Below, in pieces: positions 7,283 to 46,896 of a DNA stretch of 64,000 bases. Made by a program: the position numbers and the translations under genes. Each line of letters starts with the position of its first letter. The first letter of the stretch is position 1. The notes beneath the pieces are model-generated. The model worked only from the letters and a program-made list of their open reading frames with translations, was not told the DNA's origin and did not search any database. This stretch comes from a virus (taxonomy: Duplodnaviria > Caudoviricetes): positions 77,175-141,174 of the IMG/VR virus record IMGVR_UViG_3300028601_000023; one strand, given 5' to 3'.

Positions 7283-7304
7283 GGGACCTTACGGTCCCTT
7301 TTTT
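7283..7304 (+). terminator. intrinsic terminator
   Basis: GGGACC-TTAC-GGTCCC followed by T6. Confidence 0.85.
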
Positions 7305-7315
7305 AATTTTCTGCT

Positions 7316-7830
7316 AATTTTGTTGGTAAATATACAGCAATTTTCGTCAATTTCGGGAATAGTCAATTAATTCAACAGGTTAGATGAAATATAGACACAC
7401 TCTAAGTGGTTGATTTAATTCAACAAAAAAAGATACCGTTATTTTCCACAACATTTTTCGTAAATCACAAAAGTGAACCGTTTAAAGTAGACAGCTGAAG
7501 GTTTTCTATATGTATTTCGCTGAATATTCTACTAGAGAAGAGCGAAGCTAAATCTTTCCACTGAGGGAACCGAAGTGGATGTCCGCAAGGACAAAACTCT
7601 GATGAGATTTTATTAGATCACCGGAGTGAATACTTAAAGTAGACAGCTGAAAGTATTTTTAGACTAAAACTTTAGAGTCTCTAAGGTGGGCGGTAAAAAG
7701 TATATCTAAATCGTTCTATGAAATTCTATTTCAATTAATGATCAACCAATTTCTTCTATTGCCTCTAATTGTTCCCTAGCGGGAAATGGCCTCGGTTCCC
7801 TTCGGCCAAAGTTTTAATGGTTTCTATAAA
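7316..7830. repeat. non-coding hairpin element, copy A (candidate replication origin or structured RNA)
   Basis: 7316-7463 matches 44097-44244 (143/148) and 7540-7680 matches 44320-44460 (140/141); ORF-free; multiple hairpins. Confidence 0.9.
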
Positions 7831-23988: not shown

Positions 23989-24067
23989 CTCCCTCTCGCC
24001 TAACTTGGTTATGGCTCTCGGTTTGGAGCCGAGTATAATGCTTGTTCGAATCAAGCGGGGGAGACCA
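23989..24067 (+). tRNA. tRNA-Pro(UGG)
   Basis: CTCCCTC/GGGGGAG acceptor, CTCGG-TTTGGAG-CCGAG, GTTCGAATC, CCA. Confidence 0.9.
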
Positions 24068-24070
24068 TAT

Positions 24071-24142
24071 TCCGAAATAGCTCAATGGCAGAGCACGTGC
24101 CTGTTAAGCACAAGGTTTCTGGTTCGAGTCCAGATTTCGGAG
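24071..24142 (+). tRNA. tRNA-Asn(GUU)
   Basis: TCCGAAA/TTTCGGA acceptor, loop CTGTTAA, GGTTCGAGTCC; CCA not encoded. Confidence 0.9.
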
Positions 24143-24147
24143 CACAC

Positions 24148-24225
24148 GTCCTCGTAGTCCAACTGGTAGGAGACAAGAGATTCAAGATCTCTACAGTGTC
24201 TGTTCGAATCAGACCGGGGATACCA
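24148..24225 (+). tRNA. tRNA-Leu(CAA), short variable loop
   Basis: AGAGA-TTCAAGA-TCTCT, GTTCGAATC, ACCA. Confidence 0.85.
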
Positions 24226-24236
24226 GTAAAAATTAT

Positions 24237-24311
24237 GCCGGTATAGTTCAGTGGTAGAACGCTTGTTTTGTAATCAAGATGTCGGGAGTTCAAATCTCTC
24301 TATCGGCTCCA
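24237..24311 (+). tRNA. tRNA-Thr(UGU)
   Basis: GCCGGTA/TATCGGC acceptor, loop TTTGTAA, TCCA. Confidence 0.9.
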
Positions 24312-24320
24312 ATAAATTTC

Positions 24321-24398
24321 GGCCCTTTATCCCAACTGGTAGAGGAAGCTGCTTTAGAAGCAGTAAATGTCTCAGTTCGAATCTGAGAGGGGCTACCA
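24321..24398 (+). tRNA. tRNA-Leu(UAG), short variable loop
   Basis: GCTGC-TTTAGAA-GCAGT, GTTCGAATC, ACCA. Confidence 0.85.
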
Positions 24399-24402
24399 TT
24401 TC

Positions 24403-24478
24403 GTGTCTGAACCCAAATAGCGAGGGCACTGGCTGTGACCCAGTTGGCTAGTGGGAGCGTTACCCACCGGACACTCCA
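24403..24478 (+). tRNA. tRNA-His(GUG), atypical
   Basis: GTGTCTG/CGGACAC acceptor, ACTGG-CTGTGAC-CCAGT, T-loop AGCGTTA, TCCA. Confidence 0.75.
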
Positions 24479-24479
24479 A

Positions 24480-24592
24480 ATTTTGACCACTCTTAGCAGA
24501 GGAGCGTAGATACGGCGGATTGTCTTGCGGCACTTATCGATTACGTCACATCATCCAAGAGTAAGCAGACATGAGGGATGATTGGTCAAAAT
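24480..24592 (+). ncRNA. putative structured small RNA
   Basis: 10-bp closing stem ATTTTGACCA/TGGTCAAAAT enclosing three hairpins; GC-richer than its surroundings; within the tRNA cluster. Confidence 0.5.
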
Positions 24593-24597
24593 ATCTA

Positions 24598-24626
24598 TTG
24601 ACATTTTATCTTAACTTAGATATTCT
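24598..24626 (+). promoter_or_regulatory. early promoter
   Basis: TTGACA-N17-TATTCT upstream of tRNA(CAU). Confidence 0.8.
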
Positions 24627-24646
24627 ATTCTCATCTGAAACAATAT

Positions 24647-24722
24647 TGCCGTATAGTTCAATTGGTAGAATCCCCGGCTCATAACCGGACAGTTACATGT
24701 TCAAGTCATGTTGCGGCAACCA
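24647..24722 (+). tRNA. tRNA-Met or Ile2 (CAU)
   Basis: TGCCGTA/TGCGGCA acceptor, loop CTCATAA, GTTCAAGTC, ACCA. Confidence 0.88.
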
Positions 24723-42937: not shown

Positions 42938-43489
42938 CTAACCTCTGTTTCTATCTTTCCATACTGAAGTAGCAGTTGCCTTGTGAAAGTGAGCTAATGG
43001 AAGTTCAATTATATTAATCCATTCGTTCATCGGTACTTCAATCAATTTTGTTCTCATATGCGAAAAAAGATATCTTTTAAAGCAGTGCTTCCATCTTGAA
43101 TGAGATAACCCAAGAAGCTTCTTATAAGATATAGTAATATTATTTATACTACGACCGGATACAAGTTTTTGAAAAGGAACTAATTGTTCTAATAGATATT
43201 GACGTTCTTTAATCGGAAGATAGTGAAAGTTCAGACCATAGAATCCTCCGGGAGCAGCATCAACCAAAATGATACATGGGTTAGAATCCCAGTACGGCAA
43301 TTTGTCTTTAGTCTTTGCGTCATAAACCATTAGATACATTCTACCAACTTTTGGTCTAGAGACCTGTTTGACGTTTGGCATTTCATTCTTAATCTTATTG
43401 AATAACCAGTTCATAGATCTACGAGCATTTCTTGATACCGTAGATTTAGTAATCCCACCAAGGACTTCTTTTGCAAATTGATTTATCAT
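42938..43489 (-). CDS. 2: DNA end protector gp2
   Basis: GRMYLMVYDAKTKDKLPYWD..P, YGLNFHYLP, CFKRYL. Confidence 0.92.
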   Translation of the reverse strand: MINQFAKEVLGGITKSTVSRNARRSMNWLFNKIKNEMPNVKQVSRPKVGRMYLMVYDAKTKDKLPYWDSNPCIILVDAAPGGFYGLNFHYLPIKERQYLLEQLVPFQKLVSGRSINNITISYKKLLGLSHSRWKHCFKRYLFSHMRTKLIEVPMNEWINIIELPLAHFHKATATSVWKDRNRG

Positions 43490-44001
43490 TTCTTTTTACC
43501 TTTAGCTTTAAATAAATGTCTTTCAGTAACTACACAGAATTCAAATCCTCTCATCTGACAATACTTTTTGGCTGCTTCCCATTTTGCTTGGTTGACCATG
43601 TAAGTTTTCATCTGTTCTTTGAATTGTGCTTTTGCTTTTTCTGTTAGCAATCGTTTGACGACCGGAGTAATAGTCTGAGCAAACGGTTTGATCTCGACTA
43701 AGAATTTCTTTATAGTTCCATCCTTCTGTCTAACAGCAATAAAGAAGTCGATGAAATACCGATGTTGTTTGTTATCTATAGGAGATATGTACGGAATGAC
43801 AACTTCTTCTGATGCGTATTGAACAATAGCAGGATTCTCATCACACCACTGAATGAATTTTCGCTCCCATGAAGATCTATAGACGATGGATGTAGGATTA
43901 CCCATATATTTAGACGGATTCTTCGGACGATAGTATCCCTGATGATATCGGCTCTTCCGGGATATCGTTGGTTTTTTTGTAGTACTGTTGATATGACTCA
44001 T
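43486..44001 (-). CDS. 4: head completion nuclease gp4
   Basis: YRPKNPSKYMG..IVYRSSWE, SEE..IPY, RYFIDF, VEIKP, NQAKW; ATG at 44001. Confidence 0.92.
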   Translation of the reverse strand: MSHINSTTKKPTISRKSRYHQGYYRPKNPSKYMGNPTSIVYRSSWERKFIQWCDENPAIVQYASEEVVIPYISPIDNKQHRYFIDFFIAVRQKDGTIKKFLVEIKPFAQTITPVVKRLLTEKAKAQFKEQMKTYMVNQAKWEAAKKYCQMRGFEFCVVTERHLFKAKGKKK

Positions 44002-44096
44002 GTATATATTTATTGACGGCAAAAACCGCGGCAAAAGCACCTTTAAAGCAATGACCTATAACCTGCTTATATAATTAATGTTTTTGAATTTTCATC

Positions 44097-44761
44097 AATT
44101 TTGTTGGTAAATATACAGCAATTTTCGTCAATTTCGGGAATAGTCAATTAATTCAACAGGTTAGATGAAATATAGACACACTCTAAGTGGTTGATTTAAT
44201 TCAACATTTGTAGATACCGTTATTTTCCACAACATTTTTCGTAATTGCGGAGCAAATGACTATAAAGTGGCTATAGCTGAAGTTTTATTCTGTAGATTTT
44301 TATGGAAACTAACTGAAAGGAGCGAAGCTAAATCTTTCCACTGAGGGAACCGAAGTGGATGTCCGCAAGGACAAAACTCTGATGAGATTTTATTAGATCA
44401 CCGGAGTGAATACCTAAAGTAGACAGCTGAAAGTATTTTTAGACTAAAACTTTAGAGTCTTCATGGAATGATAGAAATAATTTAAAAGTATATCTATCAG
44501 CTTATAGTTATATTGACGAGCTTCTAATTGATAGATGAATTTCAATATCAACTAATTGATCATTCTCCGGTTCCCTCCGAATGATACCGTCACTAGTTCC
44601 TAGTGACAATGGTTTTAATGGTTCCTTTAAAATTCTATTCTAAATACCTTTATTGTTCGTTATTTCTAGATCCAAAACCAATAGGTTTTTAATCTAAGCA
44701 ATTAAATTTATTCTAATCTCATTCTCCGGTTCCCTCCGAATGACCGTCGCCAGTTCCTGGC
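44097..44761. repeat. non-coding hairpin element, copy B
   Basis: Two blocks nearly identical to copy A, plus a twice-repeated CATTCTCCGGTTCCCTCCGAATG (44561-44583, 44720-44742). Confidence 0.9.
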
Positions 44762-44997
44762 TCCGATATTTTGTTGGTCCTTATTTACTATTCTTGAAGT
44801 TTATAAATATCAATTAACGATTCTTTTAAATTTATTCTATTATTTTATATTATGTCCCTCCAAAACCAATTTAAACTGAATGTAAAGTATTGAAATTGGA
44901 AGGCCAGGCCAAAACTGATTGACAATTGGATGATGGTTGATATATGAATTGTTATTCAGTCTAATGAAACAAATATCAACCTTGGCTGAATTGCCTA

Positions 44998-45026
44998 TTG
45001 ACAGATATCTAGAAATGTTATAAATA
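44998..45026 (+). promoter_or_regulatory. promoter(s) of the polymerase-like gene
   Basis: TTGACA 44998-45003 and TATAAATA 45019-45026; another TTGACA-N16-TATATG at 44919. Confidence 0.5.
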
Positions 45027-45054
45027 TATCAAATCTTGTGGAATTAGGAGTCAT

Positions 45055-46896
45055 ATGTTTGTTTCCAGAAAACATCTAGCCGAACATTTGTCAGCAATAG
45101 AAGAGAATGAACTTTCAGCCGAAATCTTTATTGCTGATAAAATTCTCAATCATCCTGTTTTTTGTGACATTATCAACCCAGATCACAATTTTTCAACCGA
45201 TACCGTCTTTAATAAAGCCATCTATGATAAACTTGTTGCTGCTGCAACGCTAACAACAATATATCATTATCTTCGTGCGTCTAATATATCAATGTATGAG
45301 CAGTTTGCTGTAACTCCTTATATATTGAGCAAGTTCTATAGATTTGATAGAGATGTATTTCTCGGCTATGGTGCCGGAATTACACGCATGACAAAAGAAG
45401 ATAAGCCGTCATCTTATTTAAGTCCTTTTATAACTCATGTACAGCGCGGATACTATTTCTATAAGAACTGTCCTCAAAATAAGCTTCCAGAATATAGATT
45501 CACACAAGAAGCACTTGATCTATTGTTGACTATTGATTCAGATGATACTAAATATATCAAAATAGATCTTAAAAAGCATTATACTGCAGTTGCTGAATAT
45601 TCTTCAGAAATTTCGCGCCGTGGACAATTTGTAAATAAAGTTGAAGTTCCAGTCTTGGTATATAATGGAAAAGAATATACTAGAGGTAATGTTAGTTCTG
45701 CTATTGCTCATTTCTCCAAACAAAAAGGTCATCCATACGTTATTTGGAATAAAGAATATAAAAATGAAATACTTCCGAAGATGATTGAAGAATTTTATTC
45801 TCTTTATTCGTTTCCGGAAGTAAAAGTTCCGACCTCTCCAACAGCTAAAGAACTATTTGAATCTTCTACTATTAAAGTATATTCATATGACGAGTTCAAA
45901 TCTGAGTTTTATGAGATCGCTTTAGGAACTCCATGGTTGACAAAACAGAAAAATACTGTTTTTGAACATACCGCTCAGCTCGATCTATCAAACATTGAAG
46001 ATTTAATTGCTAACGAATCAAATAACTTACATGTAATCGCAACACTTGAACTAATTAAGTATGAGGCGTTCAAGACTAACAATAATATTAAGCTCGAATA
46101 TCATAGATCTCAGCATGGAAGACTCTACCAATCAGGACCGTCTCTGCAAATGTTACCCAAAGCAATTCGCAAGAAACTGTTGTCCAAATATACTGAAATT
46201 GATATTGCTTCATCAGTCTATTCTATTGTTTATAATTATGCAAAGAACAATAACTACACTGGTTCAATGGACCATATCACCAATTATGTAGATGATCCTC
46301 ATGGATTTCGAAAGAAGCTCCATTCTAATCTATCTGAAATTGATCCAACTGTGACGGAAGATTATGTTAAAACTAATCTGATTGCTGTTGCTTATGGTGC
46401 TAATTATAATGCTAACTATATTGGGTTTGATGCTCGTAAGAAATGTCCTCAGACTATAGCTGTCACGACTTCCGGCTATACTATGACAGATGTCCCAGAA
46501 CGGTTAGCAGACAACAAAGACTTCCAGAATCTCATTGCAGATTTCCGTGGAATTGTCAAATGGTATATAGATAATCATAAAGTAAAGACAGAAACTGGAA
46601 CATATTTTGAGAACGCTCTTGGTGCTAAGATGAAACTTGAACGTGGAACATCCCTTGGCAAGAAATTGGCTCATATGTATCAGGCTCTAGAAGTCATTAT
46701 TCTCGAAAAAATGGCATCAGTCCCAGTACCGAAGTATGGAAATCTATCGCTGAAGAGTACTCGAAACGGTATTGGTCTAATGCTTCATGATGGAATCTAC
46801 GTATTGAAAGAACATTTTGAAGGTATTCCAGATGTTAGTAAGTATTTCAACGAGTTCATCAAGAATGCTTTGGGATATGATCTGAGATTTGATTGA
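45055..46896 (+). CDS. family-A polymerase-like protein (Pol I/T7-RNAP palm, no recognisable exonuclease)
   Basis: HGRLYQSGPSLQMLPK, motif A EIDIASSV, motif B KTNLIAVAYG, HMYQALE, motif C LMLHDGIYV. Confidence 0.75.
   Translation: MFVSRKHLAEHLSAIEENELSAEIFIADKILNHPVFCDIINPDHNFSTDTVFNKAIYDKLVAAATLTTIYHYLRASNISMYEQFAVTPYILSKFYRFDRDVFLGYGAGITRMTKEDKPSSYLSPFITHVQRGYYFYKNCPQNKLPEYRFTQEALDLLLTIDSDDTKYIKIDLKKHYTAVAEYSSEISRRGQFVNKVEVPVLVYNGKEYTRGNVSSAIAHFSKQKGHPYVIWNKEYKNEILPKMIEEFYSLYSFPEVKVPTSPTAKELFESSTIKVYSYDEFKSEFYEIALGTPWLTKQKNTVFEHTAQLDLSNIEDLIANESNNLHVIATLELIKYEAFKTNNNIKLEYHRSQHGRLYQSGPSLQMLPKAIRKKLLSKYTEIDIASSVYSIVYNYAKNNNYTGSMDHITNYVDDPHGFRKKLHSNLSEIDPTVTEDYVKTNLIAVAYGANYNANYIGFDARKKCPQTIAVTTSGYTMTDVPERLADNKDFQNLIADFRGIVKWYIDNHKVKTETGTYFENALGAKMKLERGTSLGKKLAHMYQALEVIILEKMASVPVPKYGNLSLKSTRNGIGLMLHDGIYVLKEHFEGIPDVSKYFNEFIKNALGYDLRFD

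Follow-up and report, generated by a model that had tools for sequence, protein, structure and literature searches.

We analysed 64 kb of viral DNA (Caudoviricetes; IMG/VR record IMGVR_UViG_3300028601_000023), referred to below as the window, which is the last 64 kb of a 141-kb record that is ~80% complete. The gene content is that of a distant T4-like phage: gp4 (head completion), gp2, gp3 and the baseplate hub are on the minus strand on the left, baseplate genes resembling gp6 and gp7 lie to the right of the locus studied here, and the closest cultured relatives (Nitratidesulfovibrio phage SRB7757, pelagimyophage and cyanophages) are 31-34% identical in gp6. Between divergent gene blocks there is a 1-kb gap free of open reading frames (44041-45054) and, in this gap, immediately before a gene for a polymerase-like protein of 613 residues, small DNA hairpins are arranged in mirrored order on the two strands. 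They belong to a non-coding cassette of 0.6-0.9 kb that alignment and self-BLAST find in three direct copies in the genome (A, B and, at this locus, C; Table 1). The hairpin design is conserved, its layout is strand-mirrored, the cassette is triplicated and the link to a polymerase-like gene recurs in five lineages.

A triplicated cassette of strand-mirrored hairpins

A preliminary description made from the sequence reported two tandem units on the right of the gap, each of which has, on the bottom strand, first a GAA-triloop hairpin and then one with GGAGGGAACCGGA in its loop, in the same order as a top-strand unit upstream. The hairpin sequences and coordinates are exact to the base, the bottom-strand reading holds for each unit, and the right units (44559-44607 and 44719-44761) do mirror the top-strand unit at 44321-44373. 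In top-strand letters, CATTC-TCCGGTTCCCTCC-GAATG occurs at 44561-44583 and again at 44720-44742, within identical 25-nt copies (44560-44584 and 44719-44743) spaced by 159 nt; the accessory hairpins that follow, GTCACTAG-TTC-CTAGTGAC and GCCAG-TTC-CTGGC, have stems that differ by compensatory changes. The left unit, ~220 nt away, carries AGC-GAA-GCT, TCCACT-GAGGGAACCGA-AGTGGA and TGTCC-GCAA-GGACA in this order, and DNA-folding z-scores of the left and right-unit hairpins range from -2 to -4. One correction is needed: the large "loop" of the first description is itself structured, being made of tandem G.A pairs, a 2-bp mini-stem and a GAA triloop. The refined design is therefore a variable Watson-Crick outer stem, a purine linker with GA, a 2-bp mini-stem, a GNA triloop, the mini-stem partner, a GA linker and the outer-stem partner. 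It takes three forms in this phage: that of the left unit, that of the right units of copy C, and a second right-hand type, TGGCC GAA-GG-GAA-CC-GA GGCCA.

The core motif is present at exactly three places in the genome, and at each of them a plus-strand copy on the left is followed 210-530 nt rightward by one or two minus-strand copies. Copy A has a single right unit, of the second type; copy B combines the two types, one unit of each; and copy C has the two units at 44559-44761. The right unit of copy A repeats the order of the left unit (main hairpin, then C-GNNA-G hairpin), its spacing and its loop types with unrelated stems; the mirror symmetry is therefore real and no by-product of a single palindrome. 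With at most one mismatch, the core 10-mer GAGGGAACCG occurs seven times in the window, against 0.93 on average and 4 at most in shuffles. The preliminary description had also suggested scanning the full genome for such hairpins: a relaxed structural scan of the 141 kb returns eight hairpins of this design and two weak strays, against ~1 expected from shuffles, and all eight are inside the three cassettes; 8/8 are on the plus strand on the left and on the minus strand on the right. That GNA loops follow this strand rule is true throughout the cassettes, the exception being C-GTAA-G on the minus strand, in the left-edge terminator of copies A and B. Generic GNA-triloop hairpins are at chance genome-wide (28 vs 23 in shuffles); within the cassettes they are ~9-fold enriched, and C-GNNA-G tetraloop hairpins ~24-fold. 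The preliminary description had named GNA hairpins equally frequent on both strands in other intergenic regions as part of what would refute its proposal; the enrichment in the cassettes and the fixed strand order answer this.

Besides the identical stretches of block 1 (Table 1), most of 44320-44433 is likewise identical in the three copies. Block 1 is AT-rich (29% GC), with short internal repeats (three of TCAATT and two of TTAATTCAACA); it may serve as a promoter, as a site of unwinding or as a region bound by protein. Its 110-nt stretch is 100% identical across copies that lie 37-56 kb apart in direct orientation. This implies that the stretch is under strong constraint or still undergoes gene conversion in a T4-like phage proficient in recombination. 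The hairpins form islands of 44-62% GC amid spacers of 23-29% GC. Direct repeats of TAAAGTAGACAGCTGAAAG, which include a CAGCTG palindrome, bracket the left hairpin block in 3/3 copies with a spacing of 150-190 nt (7483-7501 and 7635-7653 in copy A). A further motif, TTTT(A/G)(A/T)TGGT(T/C)(T/C), is found on the plus strand only, after the last hairpin of every right unit, whichever its type, and again at the opening of block 1; it may represent a start region, a promoter element or the weak tail of a terminator. In copy A, a T4-late-like TATAAATA is located 4 nt beyond this motif.

Within the left unit, the mini-hairpin includes GCGAAGC, a classic very stable DNA mini-hairpin sequence (PMC13037366). 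The copy B counterpart of the GCAA hairpin at 44360-44373 is TGTCCC-GAA-GGGACA, the hairpin being retained and the loop type altered. At the helix 44376-44407, folding of the top strand is favoured because the copy B change would give C.A on the other strand. Two other readings of these units were rejected: a hammerhead ribozyme, suggested by CTGATGAG at 44379-44386, has no Rfam support and no proper stem II or GAAA after it, and small open reading frames starting from GGAGG...ATG in each unit amount to frames of only 3-7 codons.

The genes downstream of the cassettes are on the plus strand and comprise an nrdG-like gene and a dCMP deaminase, a peptidase, and the polymerase with thymidylate synthase; copy B is located after a gp46/SbcC-like gene. 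A true terminator of the phage reads GGGACC-TTAC-GGTCCC followed by T6. A search for known RNA families at the Rfam gathering score returned only tRNAs over the whole window, and relaxing it to E up to 10 over 43950-45100 gave noise. The tRNAs form a cluster of six at 23989-24722 (Pro, Asn, Leu-CAA, Thr, Leu-TAG and Met), and ARAGORN found no others. A blastn search of 43000-46500 against cultured phages gave no match.

Table 1. Positions of the cassettes, their hairpins and associated features (window coordinates unless marked genome)
Feature	Position	Strand	Remarks
Cassette copy A	~7300-7830		
Cassette copy B	genome ~28.2-29.1 kb		
Cassette copy C	~44097-44780		
Copy A, left main hairpin and GCAA hairpin	7557-7593	+	identical to copy C
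Copy A, right unit: TGGCC GAA-GG-GAA-CC-GA GGCCA, 1 nt, TTCCC-GCTA-GGGAA	7772-7808	-	
Block 1	44097-44244	+	44097-44206 (110 nt) and 44212-44244 (33 nt) identical in 3/3 copies
19-nt repeat TAAAGTAGACAGCTGAAAG	44415-44433	+	degenerate second copy at 44263-44282
TTTT(A/G)(A/T)TGGT(T/C)(T/C) motif	44608-44625, 44766-44781, 7809-7825, 44097-44110	+	
Left mini-hairpin AGC-GAA-GCT	44321-44329	+	includes GCGAAGC
Left main hairpin TCCACT GA-GG-GAA-CC-GA AGTGGA	44337-44359	+	identical in 3/3 cassette copies
Hairpin TGTCC-GCAA-GGACA	44360-44373	+	directly abuts left main hairpin
Helix ACTCTG...CGGAGT	44376-44407	+	copy B G>A replaces a T.G wobble by T-A
Right unit 1, main hairpin ATCATTC GGA-GG-GAA-CC-GGA GAATGAT	44559-44585	-	
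Right unit 1, accessory hairpin GTCACTAG-GAA-CTAGTGAC	44589-44607	-	
Right unit 2, main hairpin TCATTC GGA-GG-GAA-CC-GGA GAATGA	44719-44743	-	
Right unit 2, accessory hairpin GCCAG-GAA-CTGGC	44749-44761	-	compensatory stem changes relative to unit 1
Sigma-70-like promoter TTGACA-N17-TAAATA	44998-45026	+	overlaps T4-late-like TATAAATA; 28 nt before polymerase start codon
613-aa polymerase-like protein	45055-46896	+	minimal family-A polymerase core at residues ~302-613 (predicted fold)
gp61-like DNA primase	genome C1:55682-56665 (L176 283-1269)		phrog_47, E 1.7e-47

The hairpin design before polymerase homologues of five lineages

The same hairpin design and mirrored layout precede polymerase homologues in four other lineages (phage SRB7757 and the loci L153, L163 and L168), the polymerase-like proteins of the five lineages being only 26-36% identical. 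Homologue loci with a few hundred bases of sequence before the gene usually show the design, and in a set order. Units on the polymerase-sense strand are distal to the gene and antisense-strand units proximal; this order, sense first and antisense second, is perfect in the five lineages, and chance would produce it about 1 time in 500 given the orientation numbers, a figure from our own arithmetic. In the cultured phage SRB7757, whose polymerase is 28% identical over the core, the cassette occupies a 1.1-kb gap: three hairpins on the sense strand (TGATGATTCGGCAT GA-GC-GAA-GC-GAG ..., CTTTTGTCAT GAA-GC-GAA-GC-GAA ... and TGTC GA-GCC-GAA-GGC-GA GACA) are followed by two on the other (ATAACC GA-GC-GAA-GC-GAA GGTTGT and TGAACACC GAA-GT-GAA-GC-GAA GGTGTTCA). 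In the complete 142.6-kb genome of this phage, the hairpin cluster is found at the polymerase locus and nowhere else. The SRB7757 cassette (PV062637.1; L149 2220-2640) also contains a ~200-bp tandem duplication, each copy of which carries a long-stem hairpin with a tetraloop variant, GA-GC-GAAT-GC-GA, the first in sense and the second in antisense.

L153 has ATTCT GA-AC-GTA-GT-GA AGAAT on the sense strand and then, on the antisense strand, CCTTCCT GA-AT-GAA-AT-GA AGGAAGG and TTGCCG AGA-AC-GAA-GT-GAA CGGCAA. L163 has TATCCTGAAC GA-GG-GAA-CT-GA GTTCAGGATA on top, then AATCCC GA-GG-GAA-CC-GA GGGATT on the bottom. In L168, a 13-bp stem surrounds GA-AG-GAA-CT-GA on the sense strand, and weaker variants are recognizable by eye: a sense copy with an AAA loop, an antisense copy with a 1-bp mini-stem and a TCCC-GAA-GGGA hairpin. 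Closer to the phage studied here, L148 (polymerase 94% identical) keeps the main hairpin of unit 2 at 100% amid ~10% divergence of the flanks.

Taken over the five lineages, the apex is G-N-A in 13/13 distinct hairpins (GAA in 12, GTA in 1), the outer stems are all different, and the mini-stem covaries (GG/CC, GC/GC, AC/GT, AT/AT, AG/CT). In the aligned set, 91% of cells pair vs 50% in shuffles and two-sided changes affect 34 cells vs 11, a statistic that is partly circular since the hairpins were selected by a scan that demands pairing. Density is the independent statistic: 13 hairpins are packed into ~3.5 kb of upstream sequence, where chance would place ~1 per 100 kb, and related T4-like loci without the polymerase gene, 544 kb in all, have isolated chance-level matches only.

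Covariation alone picks no strand, because the complement of a hairpin is also a hairpin; the non-Watson-Crick elements do. Tandem G.A pairs and a GNA loop exist on the purine-rich strand only, its complement offering C.T mismatches and a TNC loop. The G.T wobbles of the SRB7757 right-hand hairpins (in the GT/GC mini-stem and in the ATAACC/GGTTGT stem) pair on the bottom strand only, and the GG/CT wobble of the left-hand L163 hairpin pairs only on the purine-rich strand. The accessory loops agree by strand as well: those on the left read GAA or GCAA in the top strand, those on the right GAA or GCTA in the bottom strand. Together, these elements indicate that the two sides function on opposite strands, which argues against a single plus-strand RNA.

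No motif was found in the ~300 nt upstream of the polymerase homologues of L170-172; five polymerase-homologue loci from a metagenome scan, with little or no upstream DNA, had none; and in 80 related phages examined around gp4, the motif cluster and the polymerase gene were both absent. Searching IMG/VR with protein patterns of the polymerase gave no match, and neither did a three-part pattern in metagenome contigs. An exact-motif scan of IMG/VR with CTGAGGGAACCGAAG returned 53 loci, all discarded as chance matches in coding sequence bar an unrelated-looking tandem hairpin in L017, and the nine matches to GAGGGAACCG-N15-40-CTGATGAG were all due to chance. The L017 element (7420-7500, in the 330-kb jumbo-phage contig IMGVR_UViG_3300042316_000402) consists of two tandem CATTA-ACTGAGGGAACCGAAGGC-TAATG hairpins that hold a 15-mer identical to the left unit of the present phage; the 12-kb locus has no polymerase homologue. 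Upstream of two polymerase homologues (L162 1-88 and L164 40-80) there are hairpins that share an ACGTGAA loop element (AACTT-ACGTG-AAGTT, and CGTAAGTGAA-...ACGTGAAA-TTCACTTACG); they may be a diverged form of the signal.

The contigs that carry polymerase homologues (15-70 kb) almost always end 30-850 nt before the gene (L148, L150, L152, L153, L159, L162-L165 and L168-L172), for one protein in three independent assemblies; this is suggestive of a repeated or hard-to-sequence cassette upstream of the polymerase.

The neighbouring polymerase-like gene

The 613-residue protein has no sequence match in Pfam, NCBIfam, PHROGs or PDB, and the same is true of 27 aligned homologues; an exhaustive search yields ~60 representative homologues, most of them 480-580 residues long. 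Invariant positions in the 28-sequence alignment are D383 (motif A), K439, Y447 and G448 (motif B) and H578-D579 (motif C). An AlphaFold (AF2) model built from the homologue alignment has a predicted local distance difference test (pLDDT) score of 81 overall and >90 over residues 300-613. Foldseek retrieves family-A Pol I enzymes (E ~1e-5, probability 1.0), and VIA gives Z scores of 12-13.6 over ~275 residues to Pol theta, Taq and T7 DNA polymerase, with T7 and yeast mitochondrial RNA polymerases (Z 11.8-13.0) tied with the DNA polymerases. By this model, the protein is a minimal polymerase of family-A fold (Pol I / T7 RNA polymerase-like) that lacks an exonuclease domain. In motif A (D-I-A-S-S-V), the steric-gate Glu position is taken by Val, Ala or Thr; motif B is K...YG, and motif C is H-D-G, not H-D-E.

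The promoter in front of the gene, TTGACA-N17-TAAAT(A/T) within ~60 nt of the start codon, also occurs upstream of the homologues in 7/11 loci, from which we infer that the polymerase is expressed early by the host RNA polymerase. Thymidylate synthase, a dTMP-kinase-like gene, PAAR, gp25 and gp6 follow the gene, and the cassette and then gp4 precede it. The phage also encodes PolB, a DnaB-like helicase and a gp61-like primase, which makes the 613-residue enzyme an extra. The idea that it is the only primase was rejected on finding the gp61-like gene at genome 55682-56665, a primase missed by the Pfam models Toprim_2, Toprim_4 and DNAG_N and found only via its SRB7757 homologue.

Candidate roles: initiation signals, hairpin promoters or regulatory sites

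What the mirrored hairpins do is a matter of weighing several readings, of which we tentatively favour one, as the likeliest though short of even odds: that they are strand-specific single-strand DNA initiation signals for the family-A enzyme, in an origin-like zone firing outward. The preliminary description had proposed a bidirectional origin or paired priming sites. This fits because the hairpins keep a constant position upstream of a family-A polymerase-like gene and because they resemble the N4 promoters, RSF1010 ssiA and the G4 origin (PMC13037366, PMC4496689). Beyond the existence of the hairpins, their conservation, their mirroring and their adjacency to the polymerase gene, the steps are ones that we infer. 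The polymerase-like enzyme would be made early from its sigma-70-type promoter; the AT-rich cassette would open or become supercoiled and its hairpins extrude, those of the purine-rich strand persisting as tandem G.A pairs and a GNA triloop would give extra stability on this strand only, on top on the left and on the bottom on the right. The enzyme would recognise the purine-strand hairpins and start a chain de novo on the same strand. Given that a polymerase moves along its template 3' to 5', chains from the left unit would grow leftward and those from the right units rightward, forming two diverging forks that the T4-type replisome of the phage (PolB, DnaB-like helicase, gp61-like primase) might take over; the three cassette copies would then be three bidirectional origins. 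Put more broadly, that a clade of T4-like phages has an undescribed initiation system, in which a minimal family-A polymerase starts chains at mirrored DNA hairpins, seems to us a possibility falling only somewhat short of an even one.

Of the earlier proposal, the mirrored symmetry has stood and is now seen in three copies and in four other lineages; the triplication of the locus and the polymerase nature of the neighbouring gene had been missed. DNA priming is not separable from transcription at hairpin promoters, and GC skew carries no origin signature, tracking gene orientation only. These two points and several others weigh against initiation of DNA chains. Whether the product is DNA or RNA is not callable from structure, because the DNA and RNA polymerase folds tie, the steric-gate Glu is absent and motif C is HDG. 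The putative tie between hairpins and polymerase is one of co-location only, and the motif is absent upstream of the gene in L159 (~610 nt) and in L151 (no intergenic gap). At copies A and B, which lack a polymerase gene next to them, the enzyme would have to act in trans. With a gp61-like primase already present, a second priming enzyme is not obviously needed. The plus-strand TTTT(A/G)(A/T)TGGT is not mirrored and is unaccounted for by an origin model. Finally, G-GAA-C is the less stable orientation of the closing pair for GNA triloops in DNA (PMC3201870), and it is the one that the hairpins of this phage have.

The explanation that we place second, and regard as unlikely, is that the hairpins are promoters of the kind used by phage N4, the family-A enzyme being a single-subunit RNA polymerase that reads extruded template-strand hairpins; the right units, which are on the template strand of the plus-strand genes, would drive rightward transcription of the downstream DNA-metabolism genes and the left unit leftward transcription. 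The early promoters of the N4 virion RNA polymerase (vRNAP) are indeed template-strand DNA hairpins with a GNA triloop and a sheared G:A, strand-specific in that the hairpin of the non-functional strand is not equivalent (PMC4496689, PMC13037366), and they are read single-stranded or extruded by a polymerase of the family-A / T7-like superfamily. The core fold here is equally close to T7 and mitochondrial RNA polymerases (Z 11.8-13.0), its motif A (D-I-A-S-S-V) lacks the steric-gate Glu and its motif C is H-D-G; 3/3 cassettes lie upstream of plus-strand gene blocks, and TTTT(A/G)(A/T)TGGT is located at the template-5' side of every right unit, which is the position of an N4-type start site. 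However, leftward transcripts from copies A and B would be antisense into the upstream plus-strand genes, promoters of sigma-70-like or T4-late-like type are already available to the downstream genes, and T4-like phages are known to depend on a modified host RNA polymerase. The hairpins also differ: N4 promoters have a continuous 5-7 bp stem and a conserved region from -17 to +1, whereas here there is a mini-stem of 2 (rarely 3) bp, tandem G.A and a variable outer stem of 4-14 bp, and an N4-like flanking consensus is absent around the scanned hairpins. So do the enzymes, as N4 vRNAP is a 1,106-aa domain of an injected 3,500-aa virion protein and the present one is a 613-aa protein with a sigma-70-like promoter. 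Mirrored opposite-strand pairs and triplication are features of this phage, not of N4.

Alternatively, and in our judgement rather improbably, the cassette could be a regulatory or recombination module akin to the PeSL elements, or hold hairpin or cruciform sites for another protein (for example, a repressor of the polymerase operon or a structure-specific nuclease), with no chain initiation. PeSLs are short terminator-plus-promoter composites present in many copies in the hyperplastic regions of T4-type phages (PMC2839356, PMC4122927), and there are likenesses: the cassettes are repeated and intergenic in a T4-like genome, sigma-70-like promoters are nearby, and copies A and B, in the manner of PeSL elements, start just behind a terminator (PMC4122927). 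The three direct copies with their fully identical 110-nt block suggest ongoing gene conversion or recombination, and copy B comes after the gp46/SbcC-like gene. PeSLs are nevertheless small terminator-plus-promoter units (PMC4122927), not arrays of mirrored purine-loop hairpins that span 0.6-0.9 kb, number three and are tied to a polymerase gene; next to the mirrored units there is no -35/-10 pair, their T-run is weak and displaced, and a true terminator exists only at the left edge of copies A and B. The constant site before the polymerase gene, among proteins that are 26-36% identical, points to a functional tie, and variable arms around a conserved centre favour an extruded hairpin over a double-stranded operator.

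It is more doubtful still that the cassette encodes a plus-strand non-coding RNA, with block 1 as promoter, a structured block 3 and the right units as terminators, or with left and right loops kissing. RNA folding of 44310-44465 is stronger on the plus strand (z = -2.8) than on the other (-1.6), the G>A change of copy B is wobble-compatible on the plus strand only, the hairpin at 44589-44607 followed by TTTTA is flagged as terminator-like, and the left and right loops are complementary over 10-12 nt. Such complementarity is trivial for an inverted motif, though, and in L153, where the left and right loops differ (GTA vs GAA, AC/GT vs AT/AT), pairing between loops is broken and each mini-stem is intact, for which reason kissing loops were down-weighted. 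Moreover, no match to an Rfam family emerges with E relaxed to 10, the G.T wobbles of the SRB7757 right units pair on the bottom strand only, the T-run has just 4 nt and lies 4-5 nt off the stem, unlike in the true terminator of the phage, and tandem G.A conserved on opposite strands would be left unexplained. Transposon ends were rejected, since the polymerase gene is outside the inverted pair and the synteny polymerase-thymidylate synthase-baseplate is stable across lineages.

Initiation at DNA hairpins by the family-A enzyme, the reading that we favour, has precedents. GNA and GNNA mini-hairpins are unusually stable in DNA and far less so in RNA, and they mark three strand-specific sites of initiation: the G4-type origin, RSF1010 ssiA and the N4 promoters (PMC13037366, PMC4496689). 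In the oriV of RSF1010/IncQ, ssiA and ssiB are strand-specific hairpin start signals, on opposite strands of one region, for the element's own primase RepB', and ssiA has a CCGAAGG mini-hairpin (PMC13037366). Here the comparison is one of arrangement only: RepB' is unrelated to the family-A fold, the hairpin design is different, and each side has several units, in three cassettes per genome. RepC-type iterons were not identified, and PF16793 (RepB_primase) had no match in the ~80%-complete record or in SRB7757, a search in which the control genomes gave no match either. The complementary-strand origins of G4, St-1 and alpha3 have GCGAAAGC-type mini-hairpins at the primase start on single-stranded DNA (PMC13037366), but these are single-stranded DNA phages that use host DnaG on one strand, whereas the present system is mirrored, in a double-stranded T4-like phage, with a phage-encoded family-A enzyme. 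As for the enzyme, TV-Pols are minimal family-A viral enzymes predicted to be primases (PMC2579912), and one of them, CCPol-MP of SCCmec, has been proven to prime DNA and prefers an initiation site close to its operon (PMC7581432, PMC10061031). The 613-residue protein resembles TV-Pols in its minimal family-A core with motifs A, B and C and no exonuclease domains, as judged by predicted fold and motifs; it differs from CCPol-MP in having no adjacent gene for an SSB-like MP partner or a D5/Cch-type helicase. Hairpin signals of this design are not described for TV-Pols, and we found no paper on the design or on its link to a family-A polymerase in T4-like phages. By analogy, the element may work like the N4 hairpin promoters or the IncQ ssi signals while being a member of neither.

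How replication starts in environmental T4-like phages is essentially unknown; the origins of T4 itself use R-loops made by the host RNA polymerase and are not conserved. A compact hairpin signal next to an uncharacterised family-A polymerase is therefore of interest as a testable pair of cis element and enzyme, and the cultured phage SRB7757 carries both. The cassette would also account for the breaks of metagenomic contigs of these phages upstream of the polymerase, as their ends suggest. If initiation at the hairpins is true, this would be the second family-A enzyme to read DNA hairpins after N4 vRNAP, and a TV-Pol-like enzyme would for the first time have a defined origin or priming signal, multiplied here to three sites per genome; it would provide TV-Pol-like primase-polymerases with a natural template signal, in the form of a small strand-specific module of possible use in vitro.

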